NCBI GenBank assembly: GCA_041941365.1
Contig: JBGTQK010000001.1
Location: 190,727 to 254,726, forward strand
Reading direction: 5' to 3'
DNA from: Cellvibrionales bacterium
Lineage (GTDB): Bacteria > Pseudomonadota > Gammaproteobacteria > Pseudomonadales > UBA7434
Length of the DNA: 64,000 bases
Both the position numbers and the translations under genes were made by a program. The notes under the pieces are model-generated. The model was given only the letters and a program-made list of their open reading frames with translations, ran no database searches and was not told where the DNA came from. Positions 43,132 to 49,836 of this stretch are shown here, in pieces. How positions within the stretch are numbered: position 1 is the stretch's first letter; every line of letters starts with the position of its first letter.

Positions 43132-43797
43132 TTATTCATTGCTCATTGCATCACTAACCAGGCGTAAATAAAGCGCTGCATGCTCTGGAAAAGGTTGAAT
43201 AGACCCATCTTTAAAATTGATTCCTGCAAAGCGAAAATTTCTATCTGCGCTTGCTGCCCAATAACTACTGGCTTTGGTGTTAGGAAAAAGACAAGAGCAA
43301 ATTAAAGGACCAGGTTCAGGGTAACTTGGATCGACCAGTTTTTTGAGTTCGTCCACTGATGGAACACGCCAATTAGAAAGGCCACACCATTTTTCCTGAT
43401 TTGCTTTTTTTATATAATTATTCACATAGCAACCGCTGATACCTGCGCAACTACCTTCTTTAGCATTCAAAGCGCTATTTTGGTTGTTTATCCATGTATA
43501 TGTCCAGCCACCATAGTGAATACCTTCATGCAGGCTTTTATTTTCCCAGACCAGGCCAGTTTTCGGGTCTTTTACACATAACCATGGTCCATCTTTTTCA
43601 TCCACTGTATTCCCGTTAGATGATAGCTTTTGCCAGTCTTTATATTGTTCTCTTTCTAAAAAAGAACTTTTATTAAAAAGTGAAGGTAATTGCGTGAAAA
43701 GTATAACTGCAATAAAAAGTATAAATACAAAAGTGCTGGAGAGGAAATAAAAAGGTTTCATTACATATACTTTTTCATTTATTAATTTTCGGTCCAT
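43132..43797 (-). CDS. membrane-anchored DUF1566 (Lcl C-terminal-like) domain protein
   Basis: 221 aa. N-terminal anchor (FYFLSSTFVFILFIAVILF). Motifs GLVWENK...WTY and CGLSNWRVPSVDELKKLVD are typical of DUF1566. An alternative start at M13 (43761) would remove the 16-nt overlap with the upstream gene. Confidence 0.65.
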   Translation of the reverse strand: MDRKLINEKVYVMKPFYFLSSTFVFILFIAVILFTQLPSLFNKSSFLEREQYKDWQKLSSNGNTVDEKDGPWLCVKDPKTGLVWENKSLHEGIHYGGWTYTWINNQNSALNAKEGSCAGISGCYVNNYIKKANQEKWCGLSNWRVPSVDELKKLVDPSYPEPGPLICSCLFPNTKASSYWAASADRNFRFAGINFKDGSIQPFPEHAALYLRLVSDAMSNE

Positions 43798-45401
43798 TTA
43801 AGTGTTAATGGCCATAAATGGTAACTATGCCGCGTTTGTGCATGATCGAATGTAGCAACCCATATAAATGTTCCAGATTGAATAGGGGTATCAAAAGGTG
43901 AATCGCTATTGAGTGCTCTTGACATTTCCAGATTCCAGTAACCATTTTTCCATGTTCCAAATGCACCGACATTGCCTCGATCACCTTCGAAATTACCTTT
44001 ATGAATAATGCCCTCTATACGAGTACCGATTGGGATTCTTTTATCAAGATGGAAGTTGTAATTGTCGCCATCTGACCAGCGCATCCATGTTTTTATCGGT
44101 GGCTCATCTGCAGTCAGGCCCAGAGTTTTAGGTAGTCTTAATGGAGTAACAGTTTCAGCATAGCGGTCTTTAAAGTAATCATAATTATGGGCATAACCAC
44201 CACTAAGTGATGGATCGCTTGCATAACCGGCTGTATATCTTGGCGAGCATGAGAGTGGTAGCTTCTTTTGCCCGAAATAACTATCATCTGCTTGCTGAAG
44301 AGTATTGCTACGCACAGCTTTCCATTGCCATATATCTAACGTTTCATTAAAGCTTGTGTAATGGTATCCACGCTGGTGCCTTGGTTCCGGAGCATTGGCA
44401 ATGGAGTTGGCACCTAAATGGATACTGTGCAGAGCTGAAAATTTTGACGTATTAGACAGCATAACAGCGAATTTATCTTCATAGAATGTGCGTTCATCAT
44501 CATTTAAAAATCCATCACTTTCAACTCGCCATCCTTCTTTAGACTTAATTAATGGAAGGTGATTAATGCTTTTATCTTTGTCTGGCCAGCGAAAGGCAAG
44601 ATACAGCCGCTCAGAATCTTTTACAGCTCGCACTTCAACAGAAATTACTTTAGCTGTATTGCCATATCTTGTATTAATCATAATCGGTTGTGTGAGTTCC
44701 CATGCTTCGTCAGTAAGCATGCCATCAATGATTGGAGGAGAAGGGGCTTCTGCTACATAAAGTGTATTTCCAAACGTATTGAATAAAATCAAAAAAAATG
44801 GAAAAGCAACAGTTAATGCCAGGCAGGCATACCAGAGCTTTTTACTCTGATTTTTTGTTGTGAAAGTCACTATGCTGAGTAAATGTTTAACATGTTTGGC
44901 AGCTATTACACTAATAACATGCAGTAAGAAATAAAATGCGATTACCCACGAAAAAAACTGATGAACGTTGGCAAGCATTATAAAACTGGAGCTATGTTCC
45001 TGACTTAGAATAAATCCGCTGATACATTGTATCGCTAATAAGAATATCCCAAACCAGATAACAAATTTGTTTTGTTTGCTCTTGAAGGATTCATGGATAT
45101 TAAACAGTAAATATTTGAATCGGCCTGTGAAAACAATGTAAATCAGGTAAGCCAGTAAAAAGGTTCCAACTAATTTACCACTGGCAATATGCCAATCAAA
45201 AACTGTTCCTTGCAGTAAAGCCTTATCCCATAGTAAATCGATTTTATTGTTTATTTCTTGCTCCAGATTGCGATCTTTTGCAATCCGGTGCCCGGATAAA
45301 AAGCATATTACAACTGTTAGGACAATGCTCCAGTGAAAAGCAATAACAGCCAATCCGTTTTTTGGCGTCAATGTTTCAGATTTTGTATTACTTTTGATCA
45401 C
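43782..45401 (-). CDS. cytochrome b561-type membrane domain fused to a DOMON-like haem-binding (ethylbenzene dehydrogenase gamma / EB_dh) domain
   Basis: 539 aa. It has five predicted TM helices with conserved His residues (AFHWSIV, SGHRI, DWHIA, NVHQFF, LLHVISV). The soluble domain reads IDGMLTDEAWE...VEVRAVKDSERLYLAFRWPDKDKS...DIWQWKAVRSN...GYWNLEMSRAL. Family assignment is by motif recognition only. Confidence 0.65.
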   Translation of the reverse strand: MIKSNTKSETLTPKNGLAVIAFHWSIVLTVVICFLSGHRIAKDRNLEQEINNKIDLLWDKALLQGTVFDWHIASGKLVGTFLLAYLIYIVFTGRFKYLLFNIHESFKSKQNKFVIWFGIFLLAIQCISGFILSQEHSSSFIMLANVHQFFSWVIAFYFLLHVISVIAAKHVKHLLSIVTFTTKNQSKKLWYACLALTVAFPFFLILFNTFGNTLYVAEAPSPPIIDGMLTDEAWELTQPIMINTRYGNTAKVISVEVRAVKDSERLYLAFRWPDKDKSINHLPLIKSKEGWRVESDGFLNDDERTFYEDKFAVMLSNTSKFSALHSIHLGANSIANAPEPRHQRGYHYTSFNETLDIWQWKAVRSNTLQQADDSYFGQKKLPLSCSPRYTAGYASDPSLSGGYAHNYDYFKDRYAETVTPLRLPKTLGLTADEPPIKTWMRWSDGDNYNFHLDKRIPIGTRIEGIIHKGNFEGDRGNVGAFGTWKNGYWNLEMSRALNSDSPFDTPIQSGTFIWVATFDHAQTRHSYHLWPLTLKWTEN

Positions 45402-45483
45402 TATTTTTTACGCGTAAATAATCTTATGACACTTTTGTTTCAGTATTGAAAAAAAGTATGTGAAGTTTCCATGATGACAGTTC

Positions 45484-45517
45484 TTTTCATATAAATTTCA
45501 TATTCGAGTAGTATAAA
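45484..45517 (+). promoter_or_regulatory. candidate PhoB-dependent promoter: Pho-box-like direct repeat plus -10
   Basis: TTTTCAT-ATAA-ATTTCAT (45484-45501) is two 7-mers on an 11-bp period with an A/T spacer. It matches 14 of 18 positions of the E. coli consensus CTGTCATAWAWCTGTCAY. TATAAA (45512-45517) lies exactly 10 nt downstream, the canonical Pho-promoter geometry, and about 140 nt upstream of the phosphoesterase gene. Confidence 0.35.
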
Positions 45518-45654
45518 AAATGGCGGTAGAAAAGGCTATTCATATACCAACTTCAACAATGAATTCAAAGTTATAACAGTGGATTCTGATTGACACATTA
45601 CACCGAAATTAACTTTTAAAGCCCAAGCTTAATCGATAGGAATATTACAATCAT

Positions 45655-48600
45655 ATGTACAAGCATTCCGTTAAATTATTTTCTCATTTTTTATTTGCTC
45701 TTCTTATTTCTTCTCAAGTAAATGCTTATACAGATTTGTACCGATTAGTCTGGACGGATGATCCGTCCTCTACGATGACTATTGGCTGGCGTCAGGGCAG
45801 TGGCAGTTTTACCGAAGTAAAGTATCGTGTGAAAGGAAGCCTGGCTATCTGGCAATCGAATACCAGCCTTACTCAATACAATTATCAAAATACTGTGAAT
45901 GGTACTTCAGATGTTTTGAATAATTCATTTGTCACCTTAACAGGATTATCTGCTAATACAGATTACGAGTTTACAATATGTGATAGTGATGGCTGTTCTG
46001 ATCGATATATGTGGTTTAGAACATCACCCAATACAGCTCAAACCGTTACCTTTGTTGCTGGTGGTGACTCACGTCGCGATACTTCAACCAATTACGCCAA
46101 AAATGATCAGGCTCGTACAGACGGTTTTAAACTGGTTTCCAAATTGCGACCTACCTTTGTTTTGTTTAGTGGCGACTTCATGAATGACGGAACATTCGAA
46201 GAATGGTTGATCTGGCTGGATGAATGGCAGTTGACTCAAAGTAGTGATGGACGTATGTACCCAATTGTTCCAACGCATGGAAATCACGAAAATGATGCAC
46301 TGGATATGGTTCAGCAGGTGTTTAATGTACAAGGTGTTGTAGGTAATTCAGCATACGGAACTTATAACGCATTGAGCTTCGGAGGAGATTTACTGAGGAT
46401 CTGGACACTCAATACAGAACTGGAGCCAGGAATAGGTTATAGCGCATTTCAAAATCAGAATTCTACAGCCTGGAATGAACAAGCAACATGGTTAGGCAAT
46501 GATCTTGCAGCAAATAGTAACGTACAATGGAAAATTGCTAATTATCACCGCCCGTTGAGACCTCATACATCTGGAAAATCAGAAGGTAACTTACGTTACA
46601 GTGCCTGGGCTCCTCTGTTCGATACTCATGATGTTGATCTGGCAATTGAGTCAGACTCTCATATGGTCAAATACACAGCGCCTGTTAATGCTTCAAGTGG
46701 TGCTGGATCTGATGAAGGTTTTATAGAAGCCGATCATGCCAATAGTGAGCACGGTACTGTATTCATAGGTGAGGGTAGCTGGGGTGCACCAAAACGACCA
46801 ATCGATGACGATAAAGACTGGACAATAATCAGCAACTCATTCTGGCAATTCAAGCATATTACGGTTTCTCCAAGTAATCTTGAGGTTCGTACTGTACGCT
46901 TTGAAAATAGTTCATATCCAAACGGTGTTGATGTGGATGTGGCTGCTCTAACACAACTTGAACAGGATAATGATCCAGCAGCATTACCTACAGGTTTGGA
47001 CTTGTGGTTACCTTTTGAAGGAGATATTCCTCTAACACTCCCTTATAGTGATACATATACAGTTAAAGCCGATGCTAATGAAGTTCCTGTTGATGATAAT
47101 AATGACCCGCAAGCACCAGAGAATGCGCTGTTTTTTACCAATTTTACTGGCGCAGTTGTTGACGGAGCAACAGGGTCGATAGTAACAAGCTATGGCGATA
47201 TTACTCAATTCAGTCAGGCATGTACCGATGCTCCTTGGTATATTTATTCAGGTTCATCAGGTTCGAAAGCGAGTGCCAATGGTTATGCGCCAGGTTCAAC
47301 ACCCGAAAATTGCAGTAACTGGTTATTCTTGCCTCCACAGGACTTGAGTGGCACAGATGCTATTACATTGACATTTGATTCTGATTATAACTTTAACGGA
47401 CCTGATCTGGAGCTTGTATATTCCAGTGATTATGATCCCTCGGTAAATGCGGATCCAGCCAGTGCGACCTGGACCACACTAAGCTGGGATATACCATCCA
47501 CTGGTGGCTACACAGTTGAATCGTCAGGACCAGTTGTTATCTTTGCAGCAGATATTCCGCTGGCTGAGCAAGCTAATGTCACAATCGCTTATCACTACAC
47601 ATCAAATGGTCGTGAAGCAGGCGATGGAAAAATCTGGGAAGTCGATAACATTGCGATCGTAGATGGTGAGCAAGTCGGGGAAGGTGATACCGAAACTATC
47701 ATGTTCTTTACGGACTTTACTGGAGCCGTTGCTGATGGAGTGACTGGTTCTATAGCGACAAGCTATGGTGATATCACGCAATATACTGAAACCTGTTCAG
47801 ATGAATCCTGGTACATCTATCAAAGTTCTAAAGTGAGTGCCAATACGTATTCTCCAGGCGCTACACCAGAAAATTGTAGTCTGTGGCTATTTGTACCCGC
47901 ACAGGATCTCAGTGCTCTTGATGCGATGACCTTAACATTTGATTCTGACTATAACTTTGATGGTCCCGAATTAGAGCTGGTTTATTCAAGCGATTATGAC
48001 CCTCAGGTTAATGCGGATCCTTCAACGGCAAACTGGACTACATTAAATTGGACAAAACCAGCAACAGGTGGTTATACCGTTGCGCCATCTGGGCCTGTAG
48101 TGATTCAGGCGACAGATGTTCCAGTTGCAGAACGCGGTAATGTGACCATTGCCTATCATTACACATCGAATGGCCGTGAAGCAGGTGATGGACGTATCTG
48201 GGAAGTTGATAATATAAAAATTATTGAAGGTGAGGAAGCGCCAGCCCCGGTTGTTGACGATACAGTGCCGGCTAAACCGACAGGTACATTACGTGTTGCT
48301 TCCTTTAACGTTTTACTTGCCAATCGCGGAGCTGGTTCTGAGCCAAGTGATGTTTATGATCCTTCTATAGATCCTGACGCATTAAAAGATGATTTGGTTG
48401 GTGGCAATGATTCTCAAGCGCAAGGCGTAGCTGAAATTATCCAACGAATTAACCCGGATATCATACTACTCAATGAATTTGATTGGGATGCCACAGACGT
48501 TGCTGTCAACTCATTCAGAACAGAATATCTTGAAGTAGCACAGGCAGCTGATACAACGGCAGTTACCTATCCTTATTACTATGTGGCGATATCTAACACA

Positions 48601-49836
48601 GGTGTTCAGCCAGAAAGTGAAGGTGAAGCAGATTGTGATTTCAATGACTCTGGTGTGGGTTGTGGTGTAGCAGGATCGGCAAATGATAACCCTGAAGATG
48701 CATACGGATTTGGCTATTATCCTGGTGCGTTTGGTATGGTTATGTTATCCAAATATCCAATCGATAGTGCAAACGTTAGAACCTTCAGAAAATTCTTATG
48801 GAAGGATATGCCTGCAAATGTTATTCCGGCAGGATGGTATGCTTCTGATGAATTGGATATTTTCCGTGTATCGTCAAAGAGTCACTGGGATATTCCTGTT
48901 AATGTAAACGGTGAAACCGTTCATATTCTCGGTAGTCATCCAACACCACCAGTATTTGACGGCACAGAAGATCGCAATGGTCGACGCAACCATGACGAAA
49001 TACGACTTTGGGAAAATTATGTCAGCGAAACAGGCAGTAACTGTTTTCTGTATGACGACGATAATACAGCTGGTTGTTTAGGTTATGGAAAACGCTTTGT
49101 CGTTGTCGGTGACCAGAATGCAGACCCATCTAACGGAGATAGTTTTGGGTCAGCTATCCTGCAGCTCTTGAATAATCCGTTTATTGATGGAAGTTTCACT
49201 CAAACTGCTAGTGGAGGAGAAGGTCGTACATCCGGGTTAGCTGCAACTGCTGACTTTGGATTACGTGCAGACTATGTTGTACCGGGTAAAGCTGGTCTGA
49301 ACATCCGGATGGATAGCTGTGATAGTGCAGACCCTGGTTTATCTTGTGGTATTTACTGGCCTAGAGTGGGTGATCCTAAACGGGATCTAACAGGAAGCTG
49401 TAGTGATTCAGGGCCAAGCTGTGCGTCTTCGGATCATCGTCTGGTATGGCTTGATCTGGAGATCGTAGCTGACCAGGATAATGATGAAATTCCTGATGAT
49501 ATTGATAATTGTTTGGCTATCAGTAATAACGACCAGCAAGATCTTGACAAAGATGGTCTGGGTACTGTTTGTGATACAGACGATGATAATGACCAAATGG
49601 ATGATGCGTGGGAAGCACTCTATGGCTTTAGTTCTGCCGATCCAAGTGATGCCCTATTAGATACCGATGGAGATGGCGTGATCAATCGCGATGAATTTTT
49701 AAATGATACCAACCCGCTGGTAAATGATGAAGCTGAAGTTCCTTTATTGCCTGTATTAGCGCAATGGTTATTGGGATTAAGCCTGATTTTAGTAGCACGT
49801 CGTTATCTAAGAAAAATTGTTAGTAATGTTCTTTAA
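45655..49836 (+). CDS. secreted multidomain phosphoesterase: FN3-like N-domain + calcineurin-like metallophosphatase, 2 x unassigned 190-aa module, endonuclease/exonuclease/phosphatase (EEP) domain, TSP3-like Ca-binding repeats and a PEP-CTERM-like tail
   Basis: 1393 aa. Signal peptide (aa 1-24). Metallophosphatase motifs GGDSRRD, SGDFMNDG, HGNHEN, YHRPLRPH and SDSHM. EEP motifs LRVASFNVLL, ILLNEFD, VVGDQNADP and SSDHRLVWLDLEI. Asp-rich repeats DQDNDEIPDDIDNC/DLDKDGLGTVCDTDDDND/DTDGDGVINRDEF. Tail VPLLPVLAQWLLGLSLILVARRYLRK. Confidence 0.85.
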   Translation: MYKHSVKLFSHFLFALLISSQVNAYTDLYRLVWTDDPSSTMTIGWRQGSGSFTEVKYRVKGSLAIWQSNTSLTQYNYQNTVNGTSDVLNNSFVTLTGLSANTDYEFTICDSDGCSDRYMWFRTSPNTAQTVTFVAGGDSRRDTSTNYAKNDQARTDGFKLVSKLRPTFVLFSGDFMNDGTFEEWLIWLDEWQLTQSSDGRMYPIVPTHGNHENDALDMVQQVFNVQGVVGNSAYGTYNALSFGGDLLRIWTLNTELEPGIGYSAFQNQNSTAWNEQATWLGNDLAANSNVQWKIANYHRPLRPHTSGKSEGNLRYSAWAPLFDTHDVDLAIESDSHMVKYTAPVNASSGAGSDEGFIEADHANSEHGTVFIGEGSWGAPKRPIDDDKDWTIISNSFWQFKHITVSPSNLEVRTVRFENSSYPNGVDVDVAALTQLEQDNDPAALPTGLDLWLPFEGDIPLTLPYSDTYTVKADANEVPVDDNNDPQAPENALFFTNFTGAVVDGATGSIVTSYGDITQFSQACTDAPWYIYSGSSGSKASANGYAPGSTPENCSNWLFLPPQDLSGTDAITLTFDSDYNFNGPDLELVYSSDYDPSVNADPASATWTTLSWDIPSTGGYTVESSGPVVIFAADIPLAEQANVTIAYHYTSNGREAGDGKIWEVDNIAIVDGEQVGEGDTETIMFFTDFTGAVADGVTGSIATSYGDITQYTETCSDESWYIYQSSKVSANTYSPGATPENCSLWLFVPAQDLSALDAMTLTFDSDYNFDGPELELVYSSDYDPQVNADPSTANWTTLNWTKPATGGYTVAPSGPVVIQATDVPVAERGNVTIAYHYTSNGREAGDGRIWEVDNIKIIEGEEAPAPVVDDTVPAKPTGTLRVASFNVLLANRGAGSEPSDVYDPSIDPDALKDDLVGGNDSQAQGVAEIIQRINPDIILLNEFDWDATDVAVNSFRTEYLEVAQAADTTAVTYPYYYVAISNTGVQPESEGEADCDFNDSGVGCGVAGSANDNPEDAYGFGYYPGAFGMVMLSKYPIDSANVRTFRKFLWKDMPANVIPAGWYASDELDIFRVSSKSHWDIPVNVNGETVHILGSHPTPPVFDGTEDRNGRRNHDEIRLWENYVSETGSNCFLYDDDNTAGCLGYGKRFVVVGDQNADPSNGDSFGSAILQLLNNPFIDGSFTQTASGGEGRTSGLAATADFGLRADYVVPGKAGLNIRMDSCDSADPGLSCGIYWPRVGDPKRDLTGSCSDSGPSCASSDHRLVWLDLEIVADQDNDEIPDDIDNCLAISNNDQQDLDKDGLGTVCDTDDDNDQMDDAWEALYGFSSADPSDALLDTDGDGVINRDEFLNDTNPLVNDEAEVPLLPVLAQWLLGLSLILVARRYLRKIVSNVL
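47131..48233 (+). repeat. intragenic tandem duplication (period 573 nt = 191 aa) inside the 1393-aa gene
   Basis: Copy 1 starts FFTNFTGAVVDGATGSIVTSYGDITQF (nt 47131) and copy 2 starts FFTDFTGAVADGVTGSIATSYGDITQY (nt 47704). Both end ...VTIAYHYTSNGREAGDG(K/R)IWEVDNI. The copies align over their whole length at both protein and DNA level. Confidence 0.9.

Follow-up and report, generated by a model that had tools for sequence, protein, structure and literature searches.

The membrane cytochromes FdnI and HyaC carry electrons from the periplasmic side of the membrane to quinone, and the superoxide oxidase CybB and haem subunits of the EbdC/NxrC type likewise pass electrons inward. In MsrQ/Fre and NOX/FRE systems, electrons move from NAD(P)H to flavin, then through two transmembrane b haems and on to an outside acceptor. 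Mammalian purple acid phosphatases (PAPs) work only when their metal centre is in the Fe(III)-Fe(II) form, and reductants switch them on. In plants, the CYBDOM proteins HYP1 and CRR are ferric reductases that are tied to phosphate deficiency (PMC10784544, PMC10784552). Here we describe a bacterial gene at positions 43782-45401 (minus strand) of a 64,000-nucleotide (nt) stretch of Cellvibrionales contig JBGTQK010000001.1, hereafter called the window. The gene encodes a 539-residue fusion of a membrane cytochrome b domain (Ni_hydr_CYTB, PF01292) to an EB_dh/DOMON domain (PF09459). Our tentative proposal, in which our confidence falls somewhat short of even, is that this fusion is a phosphate-starvation-induced transmembrane electron conduit that serves a divergently encoded, exported phosphoesterase, probably via the reduction of iron.

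A first-pass annotation of this DNA, made from the sequence alone, had read the protein as a b-type cytochrome followed by a DOMON-like haem domain, and both domain calls were borne out by Pfam. PF01292 covers residues 17-178 (E-value 3e-11; 43.8 bits, above the curated cut-off of 30.1), and PF09459 covers residues 248-528 (E-value 1.8e-37; 130 bits, cut-off 33.3). An AlphaFold2 model of the fusion, computed like the conservation of this protein from 106 homologous sequences, has a predicted local distance difference test (pLDDT) score of 92.4 and a predicted template modelling score of 0.91. The model has the five transmembrane helices that had been predicted (residues 17-44, 67-92, 106-133, 140-178 and 185-208), which make up a four-helix cytochrome b core of the di-haem type and an additional fifth helix. 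The family profile matches FdnI (1kqf_C, E-value 2.7e-4), with H23, H71, H147 and H161 aligned to four FdnI histidines, and also HyaC (4gd3_A, E-value 3.8e-3), while Foldseek relates the membrane part to the hydrogenase-1 cytochrome b HyaC (6g94_B, probability 0.97). (A PDB search with the single fusion sequence gave nothing useful, and only the family profile worked; no NCBIfam model matches the protein.) All of the sequences have H71, H147 and H161, and at least 90% have H23. These candidate haem-ligand positions lie in helices 1, 2 and 4, and the last two, H147 and H161, are 14 residues apart. One histidine that the annotation had counted among the conserved ones, H38 in the motif SGHRI, is not conserved. 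By analogy with FdnI, H23 and H161 should be the ligands of a haem on the cytoplasmic side, and H71 and H147 those of a haem on the periplasmic side. Lysine and arginine residues are concentrated at the N-terminus and in loops 2 and 4. This positive-inside pattern predicts a topology with the N-terminus inside, in which the fifth helix would place the DOMON domain in the periplasm, as had been expected from the number of helices.

The C-terminal domain is beta-rich (residues 212-536 of the model), and its profile and fold agree with the earlier assignment to the family of ethylbenzene dehydrogenase gamma subunits, but its haem site does not have the ligands of that family. The best Foldseek matches of the soluble part are Kuenenia NxrC (7b04_C, 7.7e-10) and EbdC (2ivf_C, 1.8e-7), with CBM9 modules (7nwn, 1i82) next. 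In NxrC, the ligands of haem b are Met155 and Lys305 (PMC8387239). Canonical gamma-type EB_dh proteins, which we took from an independent phylum sample, have conserved PMMG and GSRK motifs exactly at the ligand sites predicted from the NxrC numbering. In the fusion family, conserved histidines stand there instead. A profile-profile alignment to the canonical gamma subunits (hhalign, 97% probability) places H328-L329 under the two methionines and H528 under the lysine. Two further conserved histidines, both invariant, lie close by: H347 is 19 residues past the first ligand position, and H525 is three residues ahead of the second. The Met/Lys pair is thus not kept, and His/His ligation of the DOMON haem is likely. 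Haems with two histidine ligands are in general lower in potential than those of the Met/Lys type. The replacement thus fits a lower-potential, electron-donating haem, although it is no proof of one; for comparison, the haem b of EbdC has a midpoint potential of +256 mV (PMC8840923). In the phylum sample there are also DOMON-only relatives of 350-483 residues (L102, L103, L104 and L107), which carry a C-x3-C-H motif at the proximal-ligand position, aligned with H328. This motif suggests covalent haem attachment in an EB_dh-fold domain, and would mark the H328 position as the proximal ligand site. No molybdoenzyme gene was found among the neighbours of the fusion within 8 kb in the window, or among the recurrent neighbour clusters of the 81 loci described next.

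The fusion is matched by 262 clusters in the protein database at E <= 1e-3, nearly all of which carry both Pfam domains. Their source names are 'ethylbenzene dehydrogenase-related protein', 'cytochrome b/b6 domain-containing protein' and 'cytochrome b subunit of formate dehydrogenase'. Relatives occur in at least 531 species genomes, mostly of Alpha-, Beta- and Gammaproteobacteria. The distribution is patchy, with the fusion present in five of the 400 genomes that we sampled from the class. To classify gene contexts, we clustered the neighbouring genes of the 80 best loci together with those of the window (81 loci). At 41 of these loci (type A), the cytochrome gene is accompanied, usually directly downstream, by a gene for a reductase of about 355 residues with Fer2, FAD_binding_6 and NAD_binding_1 domains (Pfam). 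At 25 loci, including the window (type B), there is instead a gene for a protein with Pur_ac_phosph_N and Metallophos domains, and 16 of these 25 also have a DUF1566 gene. The two types are mutually exclusive, and their partners are never found together at one locus. Three loci have DUF1566 only, a pattern that may reflect truncated contigs, and 12 have neither partner. If the three are counted with the phosphatase-linked loci, type B comprises 28 of the 81. The absence of an obvious redox partner, which the first-pass annotation had pointed out, thus holds at the window locus, but not for the half of the family loci that encode an adjacent Fer2-FAD-NAD reductase.

In a maximum-likelihood tree of the cytochrome, the genes linked to a reductase fall into a single clade (51 rows, support 100/99), and those linked to the phosphatase are spread over several lineages that are deep and long-branched. 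The window sequence clusters with those of a Thiotrichales and an Oleiphilaceae metagenome-assembled genome, both of which bear the same giant two-headed enzyme as the window. The four full-length fusions in the phylum sample all fit one of the two contexts (one type B, three type A). Within the genus of the window the fusion was found in none of 20 other species; the left-flank thioesterase is absent from these congeners too, and they are very divergent (bioA is about 60% identical). A synteny or 'empty site' comparison within the genus was therefore dropped.

The partner enzyme in the window is encoded at 45655-49836 (plus strand), divergently from the cytochrome, and its gene is followed by one for a lamin-tail-domain protein. 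It is an exported enzyme of 1393 residues with Pur_ac_phosph_N, Metallophos and Exo_endo_phos domains (Pfam). Because it has a Sec-type signal peptide, its metals should be acquired outside the cytoplasm, in the periplasm. Motifs GD, GNHE and YH[KR]P are retained across the phosphatase family, and the enzyme is, as judged from these alignments, PAP-like in fold. At three other loci (L040, L050 and L079), the PAP-like catalytic domain begins only at about residue 400-434 of a protein of about 1200 residues, and another N-terminal module precedes it.

The first-pass annotation had called a link between the cytochrome and this metallophosphatase weak. At the gene level, sequence comparisons now argue for a strong link, because the neighbourhood is conserved, the trees of the two proteins mirror each other, the genes co-occur across genomes and Pho boxes are shared; redox maintenance of the metal centre, which the annotation had raised, stays at the level of a proposal. 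At the 25 loci where the two genes are neighbours, the phosphatase gene takes one of three positions: it precedes the cytochrome gene on the same strand, lies downstream behind DUF1566, or is divergently oriented, as it is in the window. The linkage has therefore outlasted rearrangement. It extends to many marine bacteria, and culturable relatives with a type B locus include Motilimonas, Pseudoalteromonas luteoviolacea, Microbulbifer and Hahella. The clades of the cytochrome tree recur in a tree built from the catalytic domain of the phosphatase (patristic r = 0.77; Mantel test, 0 of 2000 permutations). Shared species history contributes to this agreement, but the clades mix taxonomic orders. 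In the class sample of 400 genomes, the cytochrome is present in five, the phosphatase in four and both in three, against an expectation of 0.05 (hypergeometric probability 3.8e-6, a figure to be read with the caveat that related genomes in the sample are not fully independent). In one genome of this sample, G175, the two genes are adjacent and divergent, just as they are in the window. Another, G183, encodes a PAP-like enzyme of 1762 residues that is 52% identical to that of the window (contig G183:C167, locus L092). A literature search for a connection between PAPs and cytochromes returned nothing relevant.

The genes for the cytochrome and the phosphoesterase share a divergent region of 253 base pairs (45402-45654), as the first-pass annotation had described. 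For every transcription unit, we searched 200 nt of upstream sequence, in the transcribed orientation, for the Pho-box consensus CTGTCAT-N4-CTGTCAT, scoring matches out of 14. Among 39 type B promoters, eight have windows scoring at least 11/14 and 17 at least 10/14, as against none and two, respectively, among 34 type A promoters; in background windows these scores are reached in 0.8% and 6.8% of cases. The binomial probability of the eight matches in 39 type B promoters is 1.3e-9. A perfect 14/14 box, CTGTCATGTAGCTGTCAT, lies 73 nt upstream of the PAP-like gene at L040, tandem boxes precede the phosphatase-cytochrome operon at L079, and boxes lie directly upstream of the cytochrome gene at L065, L072 and L083. 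Membership of the type B lineage as a whole in the Pho regulon is thus well supported by promoter sequences. The two sites in the window, one facing each gene, are on their own only suggestive. The box in this genome's own pstS promoter, GTGTCATTAAAATAGCAT, has the same score as they do (10/14). A scan of the spacer for sigma-70 promoters found no convincing one on the minus strand, which is compatible with dependence on an activator but no evidence for it.

Taken as a family, these proteins offer good support for a predicted three-haem path from the cytoplasmic face of the membrane to the periplasm, and so for the trans-membrane electron conduit that had been suggested from the sequence. Outward electron flow also appears well supported in the family, because half of its members come with a dedicated NAD(P)H-type reductase. 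In the mechanism that we propose, electrons would enter at the cytoplasmic side of the four-helix cytochrome b, in which two stacked haems would be held between the four histidines. Roughly half of the relatives would use the dedicated Fer2-FAD-NAD(P)H reductase as donor; since the window locus has no dedicated reductase, the donor in this organism would probably be quinol or a housekeeping flavin reductase. (When this genome was searched for a dedicated reductase, the only matches were generic Fer2-FNR-like paralogues, none of which lies near the locus or is more than 29% identical to the type A partner.) Electrons would then cross the two b haems to the His-ligated DOMON haem, and from there reach a periplasmic acceptor. 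The best candidate for this acceptor is iron that is bound for, or already inside, the co-inherited phosphoesterase, a suggestion made by analogy with the PAPs and their requirement for a reduced Fe(III)-Fe(II) centre. The most likely role would be the reduction of Fe(III) to Fe(II), which would load or re-activate the binuclear metal centre of the phosphoesterase in an oxic periplasm during phosphate starvation. The analysis shows the domains, the fold, the conserved candidate ligands, the pattern of topology, the gene linkage and the enrichment of Pho boxes, and from these we infer that haems are bound, which way electrons flow, what accepts them and what DUF1566 does.

Several observations weigh against this proposal. 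Motif II reads GDFMN in the partner enzyme of the window and GDxx[N/D/Y] in the phosphatase family at large, so that the tyrosine ligand of PAPs is not conserved, which confirms a point that the first-pass annotation had already made for the window. Motif V reads ESD[ST]H and is missing one histidine of the PAP motif. The enzyme thus lacks the full set of seven PAP metal ligands, which includes the tyrosine of GDxxY, and because this tyrosine and one motif V histidine are absent, an iron centre does not follow from its sequence. In its mature form the phosphoesterase is probably exposed on the outside of the cell, where an inner-membrane DOMON domain could reach it only in transit. For the axial histidine pair of the DOMON haem, the profile alignment gives two candidates on each side. 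The pairing of the two genes is also not complete: in G183 (97% complete, 260 contigs) the phosphatase is present and no cytochrome could be detected, which makes it either a true exception or a case of an assembly gap, and the type A loci and the 12 loci with neither partner have the cytochrome without this phosphatase. Finally, both boxes in the window have a score that is reached by 6.8% of background windows, and the position of the box on the cytochrome side leaves almost no 5′ leader, so that the mRNA leader would be very short.

The fact that the conduit evidently occurs without this phosphatase at type A loci is one of the observations that would also be expected if the fusion were a general periplasmic reductase of ferric iron, other metals or chelates, which forms part of the phosphate-starvation response and mobilises iron or phosphate from soluble Fe(III)-phosphate or Fe(III)-organic complexes, rather than acting on the phosphatase. 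The enrichment of Pho boxes and the gene linkage would equally follow from shared regulation, and HYP1 and CRR provide a precedent for ferric reductases that act under phosphate deficiency (PMC10784544, PMC10784552). However, shared regulation alone leaves unexplained why the linkage is tight across rearrangements, why the trees mirror each other and why co-occurrence is nearly exclusive for genes present in about 1% of genomes; moreover, no iron-uptake genes recur among the 81 loci. We therefore regard a general reductase as unlikely. Of the relatives with solved structures, FdnI and HyaC are closest to the membrane domain; both run from the periplasm to quinone, and the haems of EbdC and NxrC are the electron acceptors of their enzymes (PMC8840923, PMC8387239), so one could imagine that the DOMON haem takes electrons from a periplasmic donor, for example superoxide or other reactive species around the metal phosphatase, and feeds them into the quinone pool. 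Yet a cytoplasmic Fer2-FAD reductase of the NAD(P)H type is a donor, the Met/Lys ligands of the high-potential, acceptor-type haems have not been retained, and no periplasmic dehydrogenase recurs among the loci. An inward conduit is thus quite improbable in our estimation.

The loss of the canonical Met/Lys ligands, together with the rank of CBM9 modules directly after NxrC and EbdC among the Foldseek matches, could instead mean that the C-terminal domain is a haem-free, carbohydrate-binding DOMON domain of the CBM9-like kind. It would then anchor the di-haem cytochrome b to a periplasmic glycan or partner, and would provide no third redox centre. We consider this very improbable indeed, as the match to the haem-type EB_dh model is strong, both ligand positions are occupied or flanked by histidines that are invariant or nearly so, DOMON-only relatives have the haem-attachment motif C-x3-C-H at the proximal one, and neither the fusion to a di-haem cytochrome b nor the association with a reductase would make sense unless the chain ended in a redox centre. 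We thus return to the proposal of a conduit that serves the phosphoesterase. An extended form of it, which we put forward as doubtful, is that the fusion, DUF1566 and the PAP-like enzyme constitute a previously unrecognised, Pho-regulated periplasmic redox-maturation module, in which an electron supply of its own across the membrane makes or keeps a Sec-exported, iron-dependent phosphoesterase active in oxic seawater. This module would be a bacterial, convergent counterpart of the way in which plant CYBDOM proteins connect iron redox with phosphate starvation, and the sister type A, with its NAD(P)H reductase as the driver, would represent a new, NOX-like form of outward electron transport.

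The remaining component of the window locus is the DUF1566 gene. As the first-pass annotation had noted, it follows the cytochrome gene with overlapping boundaries: its reading frame overlaps that of the cytochrome by 16 nt, the ATG lying 16 nt before the cytochrome stop codon, an arrangement that supports co-transcription. DUF1566 is directly downstream of the cytochrome gene in 16-19 of the 81 loci, and a PAP-like gene, often with DUF1566 as well, stands beside the fusion in other genomes too. An alignment of the DUF1566 proteins has an N-terminal anchor and four invariant cysteines. The AlphaFold2 model (pLDDT 82) has a C-type-lectin-like fold, and its top Foldseek match is the C-terminal domain of Legionella Lcl (8q4e_A), which binds glycosaminoglycans (PMC11162425). 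DUF1566 is more likely a binding or scaffolding component, confined to part of the type B lineages. We also considered whether it might be a maturase that depends on O2 or a reductant, like the formylglycine-generating enzyme (FGE). This candidate was rejected, as no FGE is among the top 50 Foldseek matches, of which Lcl and C-type-lectin-like domains are the best, and the C-x-C motif of the window protein is not conserved. A literature search for DUF1566 in a redox or phosphate context returned nothing relevant. The features of the locus are collected in the following table.

Features of the cytochrome-phosphoesterase locus, with positions in the window
Feature	Positions	Strand	Basis or remarks
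Membrane-anchored, predicted periplasmic DUF1566/Lcl_C protein, 221 residues	43132..43797	(-)	PF07603, E-value 2.2e-19
Predicted periplasmic EB_dh/DOMON domain of the fusion, residues 211-539 and stop codon	43782..44771	(-)	PF09459, Foldseek, hhalign, key columns
Membrane domain of the fusion, residues 1-210	44772..45401	(-)	PF01292, FdnI/HyaC profile matches, Foldseek, AlphaFold2 helices, histidine conservation
Pho-box-like site CTGAAACAAAAGTGTCAT	45426..45443	(-)	10/14; begins 42 nt upstream of the cytochrome GTG, facing the cytochrome gene
Pho-box-like direct repeat TTTTCATATAAATTTCAT	45484..45501	(+)	10/14; faces the phosphoesterase operon
PAP-like metallophosphoesterase domain, N-terminal ~470 residues of the 1393-residue enzyme	45655..47064	(+)	Pfam, motif alignment, mirrored tree

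At the 5′ end of the cytochrome gene (45399-45443), the start codon is a GTG that lies directly after an in-frame TAG, with no visible Shine-Dalgarno sequence. A TTG at codon 17 is an alternative start, which would drop most of the basic N-terminus. Elsewhere in the genome, outside the window (G000:C2:360754-366346), pstS and phoU lie beside a gene for what is, judged by its sequence, a probable AraC-type regulator, beyond which there is a divergent pair of genes, one for a Fer2-FNR-like reductase that is 29% identical to the type A partner and the other for a membrane protein of 413 residues.

Reductase partners of type A are found in Alpha-, Beta- and Gammaproteobacteria (in the set L006-L082; examples are L036:4201-5268 and L011:9630-10691). 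Cytochrome and reductase would together form an electron chain from NAD(P)H to the periplasm, and these pairs are without Pho boxes. At seven Pelagibius/Kiloniellaceae loci (L014, L015, L020, L025, L028, L055 and L062), the genes directly upstream of the cytochrome-reductase pair encode a secreted protein of 143 residues with a rhodanese domain and a HAMP/histidine-kinase protein. These genes could point to an acceptor related to sulfur, or to a sensor dedicated to the pair.

Our literature search found no paper that describes or tests a bacterial fusion of cytochrome b and DOMON, though an earlier mention of the architecture is possible. As far as can be told, the two exclusive contexts, the co-inheritance with a phosphatase, the Pho-box enrichment and the replacement of the haem ligands are new, whereas the architecture itself is already in databases. 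Marine bacteria rely on metal-containing phosphatases for phosphorus, and the availability and redox state of iron are thought to be limiting. If our proposal is true, a dedicated electron conduit for an exported phosphoesterase would be a missing step in models of microbial phosphorus scavenging, and would couple phosphorus acquisition to respiration and to the redox chemistry of iron. It would also give a function to the widespread 'ethylbenzene dehydrogenase-related' family. The reductase-linked sister group would in turn be a new type of bacterial transmembrane chain from NAD(P)H to the periplasm.

When the fusion is set beside the known systems, each resembles one part of it. With FdnI and HyaC it shares the Pfam family, the four-helix core with four histidines, which in the fusion would hold two haems, and the topology with the N-terminus inside. 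However, it is without a dehydrogenase partner, has gained a fifth helix and a periplasmic haem domain, and likely passes electrons in the opposite direction. The gamma subunits of the EbdC, NxrC and DdhC type have the same fold and Pfam family as its DOMON domain, but this domain has about 100 additional residues and a membrane tether, carries histidines for Met/Lys and is encoded with no genes for molybdoenzyme alpha and beta subunits nearby. The type A relatives follow the same three-step logic as MsrQ/Fre and NOX/FRE, here with an extra [2Fe-2S] cluster; they differ in having an unrelated membrane fold, a reductase that is a Fer2-FAD-NAD protein of its own and an extra periplasmic haem domain. 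The partner enzyme shares with PAP and PhoD the N-terminal PAP fn3-like domain, the metallophosphatase core, the GD and GNHE motifs and the histidine of YH[KR]P. PAP has the tyrosine ligand and a GHxH motif V, in place of which the partner has GDxx[N/D/Y] and ESD[ST]H; PhoD is a PAP-related, iron-containing enzyme of the Pho regulon (PMC4223295).

The comparison with eukaryotic CYBDOM proteins (Arabidopsis HYP1 and CRR; DOMON of the AIR12 type), to which the first-pass annotation had likened the fusion, is apt for the electron logic but not for homology. In both, two transmembrane b haems would pass electrons to an extracytoplasmic DOMON haem, and CYBDOM proteins have a physiological tie to phosphate deficiency that the fusion would share. 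However, CYBDOM proteins have a six-helix b561 domain (PF03188), to which the four-helix PF01292 domain of FdnI/HyaC type, with its one further helix, is not homologous: Pfam reports PF01292 and not PF03188 for the fusion, and Foldseek relates it to b561 (4o6y) with an E-value of only 0.087. The order of domains is also reversed, with DOMON N-terminal in CYBDOM proteins and last, after the cytochrome, in the fusion, and the likely donor of the fusion is not ascorbate. The likeness thus looks like convergent design, by which two analogous, non-homologous proteins would have arrived at the same electron path, rather than membership of the bacterial fusion in the CYBDOM family.

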